From: a virus
UHGV virus genome: UHGV-0120943
DNA: 33,468 bases
Strand: one strand, 5' to 3'
Shown: piece after piece, positions 1-5,867 of the stretch
Numbering within the stretch: position 1 is the stretch's first letter
Layout: each line of letters starts with the position of its first letter
Position numbers and translations under genes: made by a program
Notes under the pieces: model-generated
What the model was told of the DNA's origin: nothing
Database searches by the model: none
What the model saw: the letters and a program-made list of their open reading frames with translations, nothing else

Positions 1-127
1 CCATCTCTCCACAGGCAAGAACGGCGTGCCCCGCCGCTAAAATGTTACGAGCGCCGTTTTCATCGGCGTTCGCTATATATCCACAGACCAGGCATCTGAA
101 TTTACTTTGTGACAGGCGATGCACCAT
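1..127 (-). pseudogene. TnpB-like (IS200/IS605 family) C-terminal fragment, truncated; continues past window start
   Basis: Minus-strand translation from 127 down to 1 reads [42 protein letters not shown]..., matching the C-terminal zinc-finger/RuvC-III region of TnpB (CxxCG...NADxNxAxNIL). An in-frame stop lies just upstream at 146-148 and the ATPase gene occupies the space where the N-terminal body would be. Confidence 0.35.
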
Positions 128-211
128 ATGTTGATGCCTTTCATTTTAAAGATTATTATCTAATATTGTTCGATTTAACGCATTGTTCCAAAATAAAATG
201 AGAGTACTTTA

Positions 212-1396
212 ATGATCAGAACAATAGCAATACGTAATTTCAAATCGTTGGTTGATGTCTCGATCAACCTACAAAAATTTAATTGTTTTGTAGGCATGAA
301 CAGTGCGGGTAAAAGTAGCATATTGCAGGCTATCGACTTCATATCGCAACAAATGCATGGATACCTCTACCTCTGGTTAGAAGATCGTGGCTGGGAGTCG
401 AAGGATCTGTACTCTCGAACGAGCAATACTAAAGCGTTTTCTCAACCACTGTTCATAGAAGTTATTTATGATCTGGACGGAAAATGCCTCGTCTGGCAAG
501 GTCATTTCAATCGTAGCCTTATGAGAATGACCCGAGAAAGTATCCATATAGACGGAGAAATGTACCTTGAGGTTATTGATGGGAAGTACAGAACACATGG
601 AAGAAGCTATGACTCAATACCTTTTGAGTATAGTGGTTCAATTTTGGCAACATTAAAAGATAACGTCATTTCTTCTGATGTTATTCATTTTCGTGATGCG
701 CTGAAAAATATCCGCTCTCTCGAGTTACTGTCTCCTCATTTATTGCGAAAGCGCTCCCGTTCGGAAATTAAACCCTCCGGAGTCGGCATTGGTGGAGAAA
801 AACTTTCGGGATACATTGATACGTTAACTCACGATGATAAAAAGATACTTCAACAGATACTCATAAAATTCTACCCACAGATAGTTGGTCTGAGAACGTC
901 GACGTTGAAAGGTGGTTGGAAACGACTGATTATTCAGGAGCGCTTTGTCGATGCAAACGGTGATGAGGCTATTTGCGAGACCGAAGCCGGACAACTCAAT
1001 GACGGATTGTTGCGTATTTTGGCCGTAATTGCTCAGCTAGAGTCCAAAGACGGGTCATTGCTTCTCTTGGATGAGATCGAAAACGGGATTAATCCGCAAG
1101 TTATTGAGCTGCTGGTAGATACTTTGGTTAATGCAAAAACGCAAGTCATTGTGACAACGCATAGCCCAATGATCCTCAATTATCTTGAAGATGATGTTGC
1201 GCGTAAGGGCATCCAGTTTGTTTATAAATCGCCACAAGGGCAAACGCGTGTCCGACCTTTCTTTGAAATGCAGCGTATAAATGAAAAACTTCAGGTCATG
1301 GGGCCTGGTGAAGCATTCATTGATACCGACCTTCAACGGCTGGCGCATGAAAATATAGAGCTTGATGAGATGCGACAAGACCTTATTAAGGATTGA
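212..1396 (+). CDS. ABC/OLD-type ATPase (AAA_15/AAA_21-like), candidate PARIS AriA-like defense ATPase
   Basis: 394-aa ORF. N-terminal IRNFKSL plus Walker A GMNSAGKSS; Walker B/D-loop LLLLDEIENGINPQ; H-loop VIVTTHSPMILN. Stop overlaps the downstream start (TGATG). Confidence 0.8.
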   Translation: MIRTIAIRNFKSLVDVSINLQKFNCFVGMNSAGKSSILQAIDFISQQMHGYLYLWLEDRGWESKDLYSRTSNTKAFSQPLFIEVIYDLDGKCLVWQGHFNRSLMRMTRESIHIDGEMYLEVIDGKYRTHGRSYDSIPFEYSGSILATLKDNVISSDVIHFRDALKNIRSLELLSPHLLRKRSRSEIKPSGVGIGGEKLSGYIDTLTHDDKKILQQILIKFYPQIVGLRTSTLKGGWKRLIIQERFVDANGDEAICETEAGQLNDGLLRILAVIAQLESKDGSLLLLDEIENGINPQVIELLVDTLVNAKTQVIVTTHSPMILNYLEDDVARKGIQFVYKSPQGQTRVRPFFEMQRINEKLQVMGPGEAFIDTDLQRLAHENIELDEMRQDLIKD

Positions 1397-2154
1397 TGAT
1401 GATTGTTGTATTGAGTGGAGAGGGGCCGTCTGATCTCGGCAGTTGTGTAAACGGGCAGGGAGAATGTCTGATAAATGATTTCAACCATGGCCCGATGACA
1501 TATTTTATAGATAAAGAGCTGGAAACATTGCTTGGGTTCTCTCTTCTTGAAATAACGCCAGATCGTTACATTTTTGTCTCAAAATCTGAGCTGATCAGAC
1601 TGACTTCAGCGAAGCGACAAAACCGATCTAGTATGAGTCTGTTAGGGAAGAAAAGGCCTGAAAAAGAGACAGGTTACTTTTATCTCAATGCTTTAATACT
1701 GGGGAATAGAGCTGCTGAGCTTGCAATTGAGCATGAAGATCCCGCAGTGATCGCAGTACTTTTTAGGGACTCTGATGGCACACGTTCTGCGAATTTATCG
1801 CTATGGCAGGATAAAGTAAACTCGATACGTCATGGATTTGATAATTCAGCTATAGGCGAACGCGGTGTTGCCATGGTTCCTAAGCCTAAGTCTGAGAGTT
1901 GGATGCTATGTGTGCTGAGAGATGGTTATGAACACTGCGCAAGGCTGGAAGATTTATCCGGGAATGATAATGTCCCCGACTCAGCTAAAAGGCAGCTGGA
2001 AGAGGCTTTAGGAAGTAATGCTTCGACATCGGCACAGATTCATCACCTCAAGCAAAGTGGCATTGATACGGCAAGACTTGCTGCACAGATGCCGAGTTAT
2101 GACGCGTTCCAACTAAGTTTGGCTGCTGCATTTCGCTTGGCTGCACAGGTTTAG
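1396..2154 (+). CDS. TOPRIM-like (OLD-family/DUF4435-like) partner of the upstream ATPase, candidate AriB-like effector
   Basis: About 252 aa, translationally coupled to the ATPase. N-terminal IVVLSGEGPSD fits the OLD-family TOPRIM hhhxEGxxD motif; a later AVLFRDSDGT supplies a DxD-type acidic motif. Track start 1393 is TTG; ATG at 1396 or 1399 is more likely. Confidence 0.65.
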   Translation: MMIVVLSGEGPSDLGSCVNGQGECLINDFNHGPMTYFIDKELETLLGFSLLEITPDRYIFVSKSELIRLTSAKRQNRSSMSLLGKKRPEKETGYFYLNALILGNRAAELAIEHEDPAVIAVLFRDSDGTRSANLSLWQDKVNSIRHGFDNSAIGERGVAMVPKPKSESWMLCVLRDGYEHCARLEDLSGNDNVPDSAKRQLEEALGSNASTSAQIHHLKQSGIDTARLAAQMPSYDAFQLSLAAAFRLAAQV

Positions 2155-2192
2155 AGTCCGTACATAATTCGGTGCAAATGCCTTTATCTGAC

Positions 2193-2212
2193 GTGACCGC
2201 TCAAGCGGTCAC
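2193..2212. repeat. Perfect inverted repeat GTGACCGC-TCAA-GCGGTCAC, no U-tract
   Basis: 8-bp perfect stem with 4-nt loop, 39 bp after the stop of the TOPRIM-like gene. No T-run on either strand, so not a typical intrinsic terminator. Confidence 0.5.
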
Positions 2213-2539
2213 AGACCTCGATAATAAGCAACTCATAATCATTCGCCAGCCACACCGTATGCTCTCCTGCAAACGAACCATCTATTTTAAGAAAGTCTCT
2301 GGTACTCGAACTTCCGCTTATGGCACAGAGCGGACTGTCATATTAGGTTTGGCTCCACGCCATAGATATGTCAGTTCATATCTTATCTAATACACACAAT
2401 AACTTTCTCATTCTTAGAGAATTATTCTTTTAAGGGTAGGTGTTGACGTTAGAGCAAAAGAATGGTGATTTTTTTGATGTGTATTACGTTGGAACTAATG
2501 GGAATAACTATCTGTTTTCAACGCACAGCTAATTTATCA

Positions 2540-2559
2540 AGGCCCTTTGATCAGGGCCT
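2540..2559 (-). terminator. Hairpin downstream of the minus-strand peptidase/membrane-protein operon
   Basis: AGGCCCT-TTGATC-AGGGCCT, 7-bp stem, 26 bp past the stop at 2585; modest U-run on the minus-strand transcript. Confidence 0.35.
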
Positions 2560-2584
2560 CCGAAAGACTGTTGGACCGAGAGAG

Positions 2585-3190
2585 TTACTTGCGTTTAAAA
2601 AGGTATTTTGTCACGACCAGCACGAGGCCGAATACCTCTGTCAAAGTACCGCCCATGTACAACTGGAGCGTTAAGTCTTTAAATACAAGCCATCCAGCAC
2701 CAGTGGCAAAAAATACACCATTCATTATCAGAAGTTGGCAAGCAAGGATAATCAGGAACCATTTGCCATAGCGTTTTTTTAGATCGATTTCAGCTTCAAA
2801 ATCTTTGTTGTTGAGTTGTTTGCGCTCATGCTCGGTATCAAGTGAATCCACCTGCTTCACAGATGTGAACTCGGTCAAGATTTTGCTCTCAGTACGGGTG
2901 ACTTGTTGAGATGGTGTAGCAGTTGGAATTCTTTTGATTGACGCAGCTACAGCCATTTTGCGAGCTTCGGCAGCTCTTTTTCTGGCTATTCCGTGAATAC
3001 GGGCAGACGGTTTTTTTGGAGCGTGCGAAACCTTTGGCTGAGGTGAAGTTTCGTCGGGAGACTGAACCGGGGTTTCATCGTCCCCCGGCTCAACCTCTTC
3101 TGCTAACTGACGGTGTAGGTTGAGGGAATCCTTCAGTCGGCGTGCAACTTCCTGTTTGAAACGGCTGTTAAAATCGTCATCCGATGGCAT
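2585..3190 (-). CDS. Membrane-anchored protein with charged low-complexity N-terminal region and two C-terminal hydrophobic helices; candidate effector
   Basis: 201-aa ORF starting 9 bp after the ImmA-like stop. C-terminus WFLIILACQLLIMNGVFFATGAGWLVF ... EVFGLVLVVTKYLF is predicted transmembrane. Confidence 0.6.
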   Translation of the reverse strand: MPSDDDFNSRFKQEVARRLKDSLNLHRQLAEEVEPGDDETPVQSPDETSPQPKVSHAPKKPSARIHGIARKRAAEARKMAVAASIKRIPTATPSQQVTRTESKILTEFTSVKQVDSLDTEHERKQLNNKDFEAEIDLKKRYGKWFLIILACQLLIMNGVFFATGAGWLVFKDLTLQLYMGGTLTEVFGLVLVVTKYLFKRK

Positions 3191-3199
3191 TCTAAAGCG

Positions 3200-3688
3200 T
3201 TACCCCAACCTCAAGTTCTTTAAACGATAAGTCATCGCATCGTCAGATACGCCAAAATAATGCGCCATTATATAACTTGGTTGGCCGTCAGCGTGCAGTT
3301 TTCTGACCTCATCAACCGGCATCAGAAGTTCTGCTGCGAACTTGTTCGCAAAAATTTCATCAGGATGCGTTCCGGCGCTTGCGGTTTCGCCACGTAAATC
3401 AACGTACTCATATTCATCACTATGCGATGCTTGCCGGGCGATGTAATGCCCCAACTCATGCCCACATGAAAAACGTTGACGAACTTTGTTGTCATCACTG
3501 TTTAGAAAGATCGCTGGATCTTGATCTTTTTGTTTAATCAGTGCGCCAGAAACTTTCCCAGGAAGATCGGTAATAAAAACATCTAATCCCATGTCGTGAG
3601 CAATTTTCGCTGGATCAACAGGGAAACCACGCCCGCACCAGAACGTGTCCAGCACTCGCCGGGCGTGCTCTCTTGGGTTGGTAGCCAT
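3200..3688 (-). CDS. ImmA/IrrE-family zinc metallopeptidase (HEXXH)
   Basis: 162-aa ORF with HELGHY zinc-binding motif in the FSCGHELGHYIARQ context typical of ImmA/IrrE (COG2856/DUF955). GGAGGAG Shine-Dalgarno upstream of the ATG. Confidence 0.8.
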   Translation of the reverse strand: MATNPREHARRVLDTFWCGRGFPVDPAKIAHDMGLDVFITDLPGKVSGALIKQKDQDPAIFLNSDDNKVRQRFSCGHELGHYIARQASHSDEYEYVDLRGETASAGTHPDEIFANKFAAELLMPVDEVRKLHADGQPSYIMAHYFGVSDDAMTYRLKNLRLG

Positions 3689-4164
3689 AGCTCCTCCAGT
3701 TACTGCATTACGATTGTTGGTCGAAATATAGACAACATGTTCCGTACCACATTCCTGTAAAAGTGCAAATTCTGCACTTCTGGTACGATATTAACTGTTA
3801 GTAGTAAAGTCTTCCAGATAAATCACTTTAAAATCGTGTGAATTGCTTGCTTTTTACGCTGCATTGTGGATGGCTCAATGTTTCCAGTAAAAACATACAT
3901 GATAATCATGAGATTAGTGGTTTTTTAGCATGATCTTAAGCCTGGTGCAGAAAATATCCCTTTAACGTATACCGCATTTTATGTCACACGCCAGAAGCCA
4001 CACCCCAAGCGGCCTGATAAGAAAGCATCTACTGTTTGAAGGATTTTGAAGCTTTTTCCCGTGACAAGATCCAGTTAACTGTTAGAATTCTTCGAGCCGA
4101 ATCGGTGGTTTTAGCCCATTCGTTAAAAATAAAAAGCATAAATATCATAGAGTAAGTTCAAAAC

Positions 4165-4932
4165 ATGCAGGCTCAACCTAAGACTAAACACCAAGAATTG
4201 GTCGATAAGCTATCATTCTACATAGACACCAAAACGCCTATAGAAGCTTTTGTGGCAGCAGATATTCAGCATGAGATTGGTTCTTTACCACCAGAATCCC
4301 GTTCTTATGTTACTGCTTTGCTTAAGGTTGCACTTAAAGATCATGATGCCGCTGTTGAGTGGTTCAAAGACGCCATGATGACTTCTGGTGATAATTCGGC
4401 GATAGTTGCTGGTAACTATGTGGGCTACCTGAGCTGCTCTGGTCATAATCTTTTCCATAGAATGGAAGTGTTCCGCCTGGTTGACGTATTCTGTACGCAA
4501 CGGATCAGAAAAATGGCGCGGAATGCTGCTTATTGCATCGGTAACGATAGGCTTGTTAAAAAGTATACCGTTATGATGAAAGCCTTACTTGATGGCGAAG
4601 AGCGAGATAGTATTGAACGTGAGGGCGCACAAATGGCAGAAGCTATTGTAAAATTCAAAGAGGCCACAGAGCTAACCTCATCTGAAATCGAGCAATTATG
4701 TGATGCTGCTGAACAGATTGCTAACAACCACGGCGTAAATTGTATCGGCATCGAATACTTCCTCAGTGGCGGATATGACAATGCAATTATCCTTTTCGCT
4801 GAAACTGAAGATTCCGATACACTTACGACGATGAATCTTGAACTAGTTGATCTTCTTGCTCATGATACTTACATTGACCGGCCTTTTACTTCGTGGTTTA
4901 AAAGCGCTGAAATGAAAGGAGCTGAACTATGA
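4165..4932 (+). CDS. Hypothetical protein, first gene of an overlapping two-gene module
   Basis: 255-aa ORF in the low-GC island; stop overlaps the start of the next ORF (ATGA). No family recognised. Confidence 0.6.
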   Translation: MQAQPKTKHQELVDKLSFYIDTKTPIEAFVAADIQHEIGSLPPESRSYVTALLKVALKDHDAAVEWFKDAMMTSGDNSAIVAGNYVGYLSCSGHNLFHRMEVFRLVDVFCTQRIRKMARNAAYCIGNDRLVKKYTVMMKALLDGEERDSIEREGAQMAEAIVKFKEATELTSSEIEQLCDAAEQIANNHGVNCIGIEYFLSGGYDNAIILFAETEDSDTLTTMNLELVDLLAHDTYIDRPFTSWFKSAEMKGAEL

Positions 4933-5327
4933 GCGTAACTGGTCAGAACTTCATTGAGTTTGCAGATAAATGCATCGCATTTGGAGATGAAATAGGATTC
5001 AGAAACGCGGTGGGACGTTCATACTATGGCGTGTTTCATGAAATCTGCAGCAAGTTAGAGCACTGCTACGTACTGACATCTCATGAAGGTGTGCGTAAGT
5101 ATTTAATGAGTGAAGCTCAGTGTAAGAAAGAGCCTTACGATAAAACAGCCCTGAGAAAGATTGGTGTCCTTTTACATCATCTGCATGTTCAAAGGAAATG
5201 GGCTGATTACACACTTGAGCGTGACTTGACCAAGGCTGACGCCGAATCTGCGATGAAATCCGCAAAGGAAGCCATGAAGCAAATCAAGACAATGCATGAG
5301 ACGGTTTATCCGCCTTCCGCTGCATAA
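4929..5327 (+). CDS. Hypothetical protein with possible HEPN-like R-x6-H motif
   Basis: 132-aa ORF coupled to the upstream gene. R30-SYYGVF-H37 matches the Rx4-6H pattern of HEPN RNases, but its N-terminal position is atypical; tentative. Confidence 0.55.
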   Translation: MSVTGQNFIEFADKCIAFGDEIGFRNAVGRSYYGVFHEICSKLEHCYVLTSHEGVRKYLMSEAQCKKEPYDKTALRKIGVLLHHLHVQRKWADYTLERDLTKADAESAMKSAKEAMKQIKTMHETVYPPSAA

Positions 5328-5343
5328 GTAACATAGTCCTTAG

Positions 5344-5363
5344 CCCCACCCTGGTGGGGTTTT
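5344..5363 (+). terminator. Rho-independent terminator
   Basis: CCCCAC-CCTG-GTGGGG followed by TTTT, 17 bp after the stop at 5327. Confidence 0.6.
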
Positions 5364-5610
5364 ACGCCTGGCTGCTGAGGCAGGTGTGTTTAAACAAATC
5401 CCCGCGAGATGCAGTGGGTCAGTTCTTTTTCCCTTTTCGTCGAGCGCTTCTTTTACCCACTCTTCAAGTTTCATTTTGCGAGCTCTGGCGCTGTTGTTCC
5501 ATACTGCTTTTGAGAGCCGTTACAGGAACGCCTTTTTCTCTCCAGTCATTATCTTTCCCTGGAGTACTGATAAAGACGACTCCATCAACAAACATTTTAT
5601 GATGTGATGT

Positions 5611-5638
5611 ACAAAAAGAAAAATCCCGCTATGCGGGG
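5611..5638 (-). terminator. Rho-independent terminator for minus-strand transcription
   Basis: Hairpin CCCGC-TAT-GCGGG; on the minus strand it is followed by UUUUUCUUUUU. Confidence 0.45.
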
Positions 5639-5819
5639 TTAACCTAATTTTTTTTTCGCTTCTTACTTCTTATCCCACATTCCATGCATTCTTTCTATCT
5701 CAGCATCAGTTAAATCATCCAGCCCAACAATTTCAGAGCCGTGACGATAAACGAAAACGCACACACTCTCCAACGTTAGTCAAAAATAGTCACGCGCAGC
5801 GCAGCACCCGCGCTCACTC

Positions 5820-5850
5820 GATTATTTATAATACCTATTGATTATTTATA
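5820..5850 (+). promoter_or_regulatory. Two 11-bp direct repeats (GATTATTTATA) overlapping a consensus -10 (TATAAT); candidate operator/promoter
   Basis: Repeats at 5820-5830 and 5840-5850, 20 bp centre to centre; TATAAT at 5827-5832; no good -35. Confidence 0.35.
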
Positions 5851-5867
5851 TATCATATGGGGATATT

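Follow-up and report, generated by a model that had tools for sequence, protein, structure and literature searches.

Ribonucleases (RNases) of the HEPN superfamily are among the commonest effectors in prokaryotic conflict systems, while the ways in which they are restrained and triggered are known for only a few of them. The locus described here raises the question of whether two small overlapping genes of a lambdoid Escherichia coli prophage encode such an effector together with the protein that restrains it. The prophage is the UHGV virus genome UHGV-0120943, whose 33,468 nt are referred to below as the window, and the two genes, encoding proteins of 255 and 132 aa, occupy positions 4165–5327. 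The first-pass annotation of this DNA, made from its letters alone, had recognised no family for the larger protein and had noted in the smaller one a motif reminiscent of HEPN RNases. The analysis indicates that the smaller protein belongs to the HEPN superfamily, that the larger one is its constant companion, and that the cassette is, with modest confidence in the full mechanistic reading, a toxin–antitoxin (TA)-like anti-phage module acting by abortive infection or exclusion. The features to which the argument refers are as follows.

4054–4088, plus strand: conserved promoter block with -35 GTGACA (4061–4066), a 16-nt spacer and the extended -10 TGTTAGAAT, which ends at 4088 (promoter scan, locus alignment)
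4165–4932, plus strand: 255-aa partner gene, predicted neutraliser/sensor (open reading frame, phrog_17809, AF2 model)
4186–4581, plus strand: TPR-like helical-repeat region of the partner, aa 8–139
4678–4905, plus strand: C-terminal alpha-beta-beta-alpha-beta domain of the partner, aa 172–247 (modelled secondary structure)
4916–4921, plus strand: Shine–Dalgarno sequence AAGGAG of the HEPN gene, inside the partner gene (read from the sequence)
4929–5327, plus strand: 132-aa HEPN-domain gene, predicted RNase toxin/effector (phrog_5176, AF2, Foldseek, family profile)
5016–5039, plus strand: R30-x6-H37, the helix-2 family signature (model, profile alignment)
5082–5084, plus strand: codon of H52, the predicted catalytic His (conservation, alignment to AF0298 and the Retron-Kva2 HEPN)
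5193–5210, plus strand: R89-K-W-A-D-Y94, at the canonical Rx4-6H position, with H replaced by Y (conservation, model)
5342–5361, plus strand: GC-rich hairpin followed by UUUUAC (fold)
3929–5864, no strand: cassette swapped relative to the prophage of E. coli GF131 (genome comparison)

Taken alone, the 132-aa protein matches no Pfam or NCBIfam (June 2026) model and nothing in PADLOC-DB v2.0.0 at E ≤ 1, its only match being phrog_5176 (2.9e-35), a PHROG with no assigned function. Its AF2 model (pLDDT 87, pTM 0.82) is a helical bundle with helices at residues 5–18, 21–42, 72–94 and 102–126 and an insert helix at 52–60, in which the four-helix up-and-down bundle of HEPN domains can be recognised. 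The top Foldseek matches in the PDB were AF_0298 2hsb (probability 1.00, TM 0.60), 2q00, 1ylm, 5yep, Csm6, 4nqf, 1ufb and 7ae6, and include by name SsR10, YutE, HepT SO_3166, Csm6, TT1696 and an AMPylated HEPN toxin. A hidden Markov model (HMM) scan of 1.84 billion representatives retrieved 1,179 relatives at E ≤ 1e-3, all of them single-domain proteins of ~115–150 aa, and 82 of these, with ~30 % overall identity, make up the family profile and alignment (A3) used here; a scan of genome contigs with the family alignment A1 returned no match. The 82-relative profile matches the PDB entries 9xbd ('HEPN domain-containing protein'; 1.4e-13) and 2hsb ('UPF0332 protein AF0298'; 8.2e-9). Pfam HEPN (PF05168) is matched individually by 36 of the 82 relatives (best 1.3e-7), NCBI already applies the name HEPN to some relatives, and the JGI label for the exact window protein is 'UPF0332 family'. 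The HEPN-like character suspected at first pass was thus borne out both by the predicted helical fold and by the family profile, and there is very little doubt that the 132-aa protein is a HEPN superfamily member of the AF0298/UPF0332 type.

The motif that had prompted this suspicion has a different meaning. R30-x6-H37 (RSYYGVFH; codons 5016–5018 and 5037–5039) is indeed present. Close relatives keep both residues without exception, and across the 82 sequences the two are, like Y32 and H52, at least 90 % conserved; E21, R25, Y33, R89, D93 and Y94 are invariant there. R30 and H37 lie in helix 2 (21–42), within the signature sRaYYa.fH, and align with SRAYYAMFY of 9xbd and STAYYAMFH of AF0298. 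The helix-2 position, the replacement of R30 by T in AF0298 and that of H37 by L in the Kva2 HEPN exclude it as the motif for catalysis. Anantharaman et al. (PMC3710099) locate the Rx4-6H motif of HEPN proteins at the end of core helix 3, and this position is occupied here by R89-KWAD-Y94, which closes helix 72–94 and aligns with RNRSDY of 9xbd and REESDY of AF0298. No His lies 4–6 residues from R89 in any of the 82 sequences, and the canonical motif is therefore absent.

The AF0298 family has been described as typically lacking the motif His while keeping the Arg and carrying an alternative conserved His in an insert between helices 2 and 3, and this insert His together with the motif Arg was proposed to form the alternative active site of the subgroup (PMC3710099). 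The window protein shows the same pattern: R89 is kept, the motif His is lost, and H52 opens the insert helix 52–60 between core helices 2 and 3, aligned with the conserved His of AF0298 and 9xbd. The HEPN protein of Retron-Kva2 (type IX) likewise has no Rx4-6H motif and uses H64 and R122 from two protomers, and its toxicity and defence are both lost on mutation of either residue, H64A or R122A (bioRxiv 10.64898/2026.07.14.738597). In a profile-to-PDB alignment, H52 falls on Kva2 H64 (E 0.066 over 60 residues), an equivalence to be read as a lead rather than proof. By analogy with these proteins, H52 and R89 are the likely catalytic pair. With respect to the invariant Y94, the aligned regions of PDB entries 9xbc and 9xbd differ by a Y to F change at the equivalent residue, which suggests that this tyrosine has been probed experimentally by someone; a literature search for the two entries found no paper.

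The partner protein belongs to no family in Pfam, NCBIfam (June 2026) or PADLOC, as the first-pass reading had it; the sole PADLOC hit, DndA at 0.021, is noise, and the only match is to phrog_17809 (1.9e-59), again a PHROG with no assigned function. Its AF2 model (pLDDT 88) comprises eight helices (aa 8–139), a long helix (144–168) and an alpha-beta-beta-alpha-beta domain (172–247), and is that of a TPR-like solenoid, a right-handed alpha-solenoid of helix pairs, followed by a small C-terminal alpha/beta domain. At the level of sequence, no Pfam TPR model matches the window protein, TPR_1 and TPR_2 match the homologue P0039 faintly, and matches to designed CTPR proteins are individually insignificant. 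Two full-length structural matches were found in BFVD, both from uncultured siphoviruses (242 and 259 aa, TM 0.57–0.70, 12 % identity). One of them, A0A8S5NZ34 (TM 0.70), bears the name 'Type 4 fimbrial biogenesis protein', which was probably transferred on account of a resemblance to the TPR-like PilF/PilW.

The 255-aa protein has 26 homologue clusters, all from Enterobacterales, and conservation in its wider family is very uneven. The best-kept segment is a C-terminal helix (217–231, DS.TLTTMNLELVDLL; family-wide aa ~214–235, DP..LA.MN.EL), followed by the N-terminal ~90 residues, and the conservation score is 0.92 for aa 216–247 versus ~0.1 for aa 91–170, a region that is hypervariable and carries indels among 15 divergent partners. 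Only L16, N224 and L227 are invariant among seven divergent partner sequences, and we read the alignment as keeping no polar residue throughout the divergent family. This pattern, with a hypervariable middle and no family-wide polar residue, points to a role in binding rather than in catalysis. The partner was also considered as an MNT nucleotidyltransferase and rejected, since its fold is not that of such an enzyme, a GSx10DxD-like motif is missing and Pfam NTP_transf does not match; the partner likewise matches no helix-turn-helix, ribbon-helix-helix or AbrB DNA-binding domain in Pfam.

The two proteins are encoded together wherever they have been found. In each of the 29 viral contigs of IMG/VR that encode a relative of the 132-aa protein, the partner lies directly upstream (HMM E-values 1e-133 to 7e-21), with an overlap of 1, 4, 11 or 14 nt; some 14 further loci are also paired, the identity falling as low as 13–20 % for the partner and 24–31 % for the HEPN protein, and no unpaired locus was seen among those examined. 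The pairing holds in Enterobacteriaceae, Pectobacterium and Serratia loci, and also for HEPN relatives of only 24–38 % identity from Vibrio, Erwinia, Salmonella, Pseudomonas, Alteromonas and Kosakonia, each of which is preceded by an ORF of 244–270 aa with no Pfam match. Three sequenced temperate phages carry the pair, namely Klebsiella phage ST405-OXA48phi1.3, vB_Kpn_Chronis (gp57/58) and Pseudomonas phage YMC11/02/R656 (gp095/094). The upstream proteins are 13–21 % identical to the window partner and are joined transitively by full-length collinear alignments (window–Erwinia 2e-5 over 257 aa; Serratia–KpST405 4e-12; Kosakonia–KpST405 2e-24). Judged by these alignments they are one family, and, their identities being so much lower than the 24–38 % of the HEPN relatives that they accompany, one whose divergence far outpaces that of the HEPN protein. 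The pairing is both old and obligate, and it can be regarded as nearly certain that the two genes are functionally coupled; the co-occurrence for which the first-pass annotation had called is seen in every related locus examined.

Some homologues of the large protein had seemed partnerless because the HEPN ORF had not been called: in Serratia rubidaea LS483492.1 (L004 6759–7154), the HEPN gene is intact and missing from the source annotation. Similarly, Klebsiella phage ST405-OXA48phi1.3 (MK416008.1, L015 4001–4396) has an intact 131-aa HEPN ORF where GenBank lists two wrong-frame ORFs (QBP08146 and QBP08147), and its partner ORF probably starts before the annotated site, at a GTG at 3214 (267 aa). 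The pairing reaches its limit in the most distant HEPN relatives (138–144 aa, metagenomic), which follow a protein of 102–114 aa with a 4-nt overlap (L047 2160–2935; L048 2196–2917). These upstream proteins have no Pfam match and are not MNT. A suggested correspondence to the C-terminal domain of the 255-aa partner was rejected: the secondary-structure pattern is similar, but hhalign gives a probability of 0.2 %, and the HMM scores fall within those of shuffled sequences (120/500 and 80/500 reach the real score). They may represent another HEPN antitoxin family.

The organisation of the two genes is consistent with joint expression. Both ORFs are real genes under purifying selection, because comparison with homologous loci gives dN (nonsynonymous divergence) of ~0.17–0.2, saturated dS (synonymous divergence) and, where computable, dN/dS of ~0.05–0.11 (~0.1 for the 255-aa gene alone). 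The partner ORF (4165–4932) and the HEPN ORF (4929–5327) share the ATGA at 4929–4932 noted at first pass, and a perfect AAGGAG Shine–Dalgarno sequence (4916–4921) lies within the 255-aa gene, 7 nt ahead of the start codon of the 132-aa gene; the two are therefore translationally coupled. Of the divergent promoters that had been proposed around the pair, one good sigma-70-like site was found on the plus strand (4061–4088; GTGACA-16-TAGAAT with an extended -10 TG, 10/12 in the promoter scan), whereas the scan of the 3689–4164 gap gave no minus-strand site. Approximately 110 nt upstream of the module move along with the genes between loci; the 35-nt promoter block is 88–94 % identical in loci whose proteins are only 62–72 % identical, and the -35 GTGACA and extended -10 TGnTAnAAT are kept in 13 of 16 aligned loci. 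In the light of these alignments, the module has a conserved promoter of its own.

At the other end, the clean terminator placed at 5344–5363 by the first-pass annotation was only partly upheld. A GC-rich hairpin of 8 bp with a 4-nt loop is present at 5342–5361, but it is followed only by UUUUAC, was not called by the terminator scan and has a folding energy that is ordinary in comparison with shuffled sequences (z = -0.93); it is possible that it serves as a weak intrinsic terminator of the module. Just 3' of the promoter -10, many loci have an inverted repeat (window 4089–4130; L020 5170–5187; L004 5911–5926), for example GATTCAC-N4-GTGAATC, whose sequence varies between clades and which could be an operator or a hairpin in the 5' untranslated region. 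A structured operator or 5' hairpin was rejected, since the recurring repeat of 6–7 bp has an RNAalifold energy of ~0 and shows a single compensatory pair. The cassette has no Rfam match at E ≤ 1.

The window module belongs to the nin-type region, with the replication genes on one side and DUF1367/DUF1364/Q on the other. Positions 1–3928 are 99.85 % identical to L006 3302–7229, a prophage of E. coli strain GF131, in which the following 1.94 kb (3929–5864) are replaced by an unrelated 720 bp before homology resumes at 5865 (89 %). The low-GC island recognised at first pass was corroborated (GC 0.429 for the cassette and 0.436 for the left 6 kb versus 0.484 for the window). With its own promoter, its presence or absence in syntenic prophages with sharp boundaries and its lower GC, the cassette has the features of a moron, the terminator being only a weak hairpin. 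None of 5,426 complete E. coli genomes has module DNA, even at blastn sensitivity, the exact proteins are found on ~110 E. coli draft contigs, always annotated as 'hypothetical', and no copy was found on 72,556 plasmids.

Elsewhere, the module occupies classic phage accessory (moron) sites. In the 29 viral loci, the commonest flanking genes are antiterminator Q (12), DUF968 (8) and N6/N4 methylase (8), and lysozyme, antirepressors, NinB/NinG/DUF1367 and prophage-edge genes are further neighbours. The copy in Vibrio is flanked by the portal gene gpQ and the replication gene gpA of a P2-like prophage, and gpA–gpQ of such prophages is the old/tin defence hotspot (Rousset et al.). The Pseudomonas phage copy lies directly 3' of a CI-like repressor gene and on the same strand, which is the rexAB position. 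In that phage (YMC11/02/R656, NC_028657.1, L017 2258–5727), gp095/gp094 are followed by one more gene and then by a YafO-family toxin gene, a stretch that resembles a small island, within the immunity region, of conflict genes expressed in the lysogen. Other copies adjoin integrases or tail-fibre genes at prophage ends, and copies are also found in non-phage chromosomal islands.

Comparison with characterised systems places the novelty in the partner. The window HEPN shares with AF0298/UPF0332 proteins (2hsb, 9xbd) the fold, the ..YYa.fH of helix 2, the insert His before helix 3 and the R-x3-D-Y at the end of helix 3, but those proteins stand alone or beside MNT genes (PMC3710099), whereas the window protein is accompanied by a TPR-like partner of ~255 aa; only the paired clade has the N-terminal helix MSV.G.DF..FA, which does not align to 9xbd. 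The type VII HepT/MntA systems resemble the module in having a small HEPN toxin gene 3' of, and overlapping, the neutraliser gene and in their association with mobile elements, RNase-mediated growth arrest being a feature of HepT. Unlike them, the window HEPN has neither Rx4-6H nor RX4HXY (there is no His, and Y94 stands at R+5 rather than R+7), and the adjacent gene encodes no MNT antitoxin with GSx10DxD and a Pol-beta fold. Neutralisation by oligoAMPylation is unlikely because the partner is not a nucleotidyltransferase. The HEPN–winged-helix (WH) pair of Retron-Kva2 is similar in its lack of Rx4-6H and in the His aligned with H52. In the retron, the larger WH partner wraps the HEPN protein and occludes its active site, formed by His and Arg from two protomers, until phage infection; in contrast, the window locus has no reverse transcriptase, non-coding RNA or msDNA, its partner is TPR-like rather than winged-helix, and the sequence link is weak.

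Among systems of temperate phages, HepS (Gifsy-1) and Tha/Ith (Staphylococcus aureus prophages) are lysogen-expressed HEPN abortive-infection RNases triggered by tail proteins of incoming phages. Like the window module, they place a HEPN protein among temperate-phage accessory genes, and Tha has a cognate inhibitor (Ith), whereas HepS has a canonical R100-H105 and no partner. AbiV of Lactococcus, a HEPN RNase whose structural neighbours include AF0298, is an abortive-infection toxin with an antitoxin, but has a canonical RNHKSKH and an RNA antitoxin (type III), and neither window protein matches the PADLOC AbiV model. As relatives, HepS, Tha and AbiV were rejected, being analogues only, with canonical motifs and no match in the PDB profile search. 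The rexAB genes of lambda and old/tin of P2 are likewise small lysogen-expressed cassettes, and homologues of the module occupy the same positions (3' of cI and gpA–gpQ), although the proteins and mechanisms are unrelated. Two candidates similar on paper were discarded: DefensePredictor DS-28 'ANEX', a HEPN protein with a 252-aa protein, has the reverse gene order, a canonical RNSVAH and hhalign values below 1 % for both components, and the 'HEPN-TPR' system pFR83 of Rousset is unrelated (probability 0.08 %). Literature searches found no description of the two-gene pair. What is new here is thus a well-supported candidate for a HEPN toxin/effector whose protein partner belongs to a new class, the HEPN fold and the subgroup being already known.

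In the mechanism that we propose, the cassette would be a phage moron, an independent transcription unit expressed from the prophage by a constitutive sigma-70 promoter. The 132-aa protein would be a metal-independent HEPN RNase active as a dimer, with an active site formed, probably across the homodimer interface, by H52 of the insert helix and R89 at the end of core helix 3. The 255-aa partner would bind the RNase and keep it inactive by occluding the active site or preventing dimerisation, as an inhibitor rather than a modifying enzyme, a role proposed because of the analogy with the WH protein that wraps the retron HEPN and with Ith, which inhibits Tha. Infection by another phage may relieve the inhibition, either through loss of the partner or through binding of a phage protein to the variable repeat region, a step drawn from HepS and Tha, which are triggered by tail proteins. 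The freed RNase would then cut host tRNA and/or rRNA, so that translation stops and the infection is aborted.

Several observations weigh against this reading. The module is a well-supported candidate for such a role, and the physical interaction of partner and HEPN protein is itself presumed by analogy. No PADLOC model matches either protein, and DS-28 and pFR83 offer no true precedent. The window 132-aa protein falls below significance against Pfam HEPN, and Foldseek, in which small helical bundles usually score poorly, gives it a best E-value of 1.3e-2; its HEPN membership rests on the family profile because these single-protein scores are weak. The absence of the canonical His leaves room for a non-catalytic RNA-binding role. 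Of the features of a TA pair, the locus has the bicistronic arrangement, the gene in the neutraliser position upstream, the overlap and the strict co-occurrence, but no DNA-binding domain that could autoregulate the operon, as is usual in type II TA systems, can be recognised in the partner, and the inverted repeat after the -10 recurs with weak covariation. Finally, the many copies between Q and the lysis genes would also be transcribed in the late phase of the phage itself, which poses a problem of self-toxicity that the phage would need some means to avoid.

The same molecular mechanism could serve a plain addiction or stabilisation TA system that keeps the prophage or integrative element in the cell, an explanation that we consider unlikely though credible, and one that does not exclude defence, as the two roles are compatible. 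The TA-like architecture (upstream partner, overlap, own promoter) fits it, as do the several copies beside integrases at the edges of integrative elements and the one near the YafO toxin gene. On the other hand, the module sits at places known for exclusion and defence cargo (P2 gpA–gpQ, 3' of cI, the nin region and the Q region), other defence candidates adjoin it, and not one copy was found on plasmids, where addiction modules are common. The missing His brings forward another possibility, namely that the HEPN protein is catalytically dead and, with the helical-repeat protein, serves phage expression through RNA binding or regulation, such as the processing or stability of late transcripts near Q. 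Degenerate HEPN proteins may act non-catalytically (PMC3710099), and antiterminator Q is the most frequent neighbour; nevertheless, conservation of the alternative His/Arg site is strict, the retron HEPN depends on the equivalent residues for catalysis, closely related and presumably viable prophages do without the module, and its many different genome positions are unlike those of a core regulatory function, all of which makes this explanation improbable.

It is more doubtful still that the pair is a counter-defence or inter-phage competition factor that blocks an immune system of the host or a competing element. Such a role would suit accessory genes that phages carry in variable regions, and TPR-like proteins are generic protein binders; however, HEPN proteins in phage–host conflict are overwhelmingly effectors of defence or TA systems, the copy 3' of cI is expected to be expressed in the lysogen, and copies occur in non-phage chromosomal islands. 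Only a very small chance is given to a divergent HepT/MntA-like type VII system, in which the upstream protein would covalently modify Tyr94, for example by AMPylation. The gene order is that of mntA–hepT, Y94 is invariant and directly follows the motif Arg region, near the HepT AMPylation site (RX4HXY), and it is at its equivalent that 9xbc and 9xbd differ, but the partner has none of the marks of a nucleotidyltransferase (fold, GSx10DxD-like motif, NTP_transf match), and the lack of a polar residue kept across the divergent partner family also speaks against this proposal.

The neighbourhood of the cassette includes other conflict genes. A complete PDC-M25A/B pair, a candidate defence system, lies at the left of the window on the plus strand, at 212–1396 (394 aa, 3e-157) and, overlapping it, 1393–2154 (253 aa, 5e-96). 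The PDC-M25A protein is an ABC/AAA ATPase that is also related to the AriA, HEC-01A, AbiLi (AbiL), Old and GajA models, and E. coli GF131 carries the same pair, annotated as 'AAA family ATPase' and 'hypothetical'. A second, divergently oriented unit (2585–3688, minus strand) encodes a 162-aa ImmA/IrrE protein (Peptidase_M78; capP 2e-25, RmrA models ~1e-12) and then a 201-aa membrane-anchored protein (phrog_5346) with a hydrophobic C-terminus. This pair, beside which no helix-turn-helix repressor is evident, may be a RosmerTA- or CapP-like unit, and conservation of the left flank extends to 431 E. coli genomes. No convincing gene is present in the 500 bp at the right of the cassette (5364–5864), which have only minus-strand ORFs of 36–44 aa and match nothing in PHROG or Rfam; a promoter-like site (5856–5828) and a terminator-like site (5637–5625) on the minus strand could bracket a transcript of ~200 nt. 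This segment 3' of the hairpin is absent from the other module loci, except for the identical phage contig L018.

The module unites poorly studied HEPN proteins of the AF0298/UPF0332 type with a partner family that is nameless in Pfam, NCBIfam, PADLOC and PHROGs, and it shares the phage hotspots that gave rexAB, old/tin, HepS and many recent defence systems. It is plausible, though we hold it with some reserve, that the window pair is the founding example of a widespread, uncatalogued family of two-gene abortive-infection systems in temperate phages and integrative elements of Gammaproteobacteria, in which a TPR-like inhibitor-sensor controls a His/Arg HEPN RNase; such a family would be a protein-sequestration solution apart from MNT AMPylation, RNA antitoxins and retron msDNA cages. 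If the proposed reading is true, the pair would constitute a new defence or TA family and would offer, after the type IX retron, a second and simpler system for His/Arg HEPN catalysis, as well as a tractable sensor-inhibitor of the repeat-protein kind, in which specificity for the trigger may reside in the hypervariable middle region. Even if it were only an addiction module, it would still represent a new type of antitoxin for HEPN toxins.

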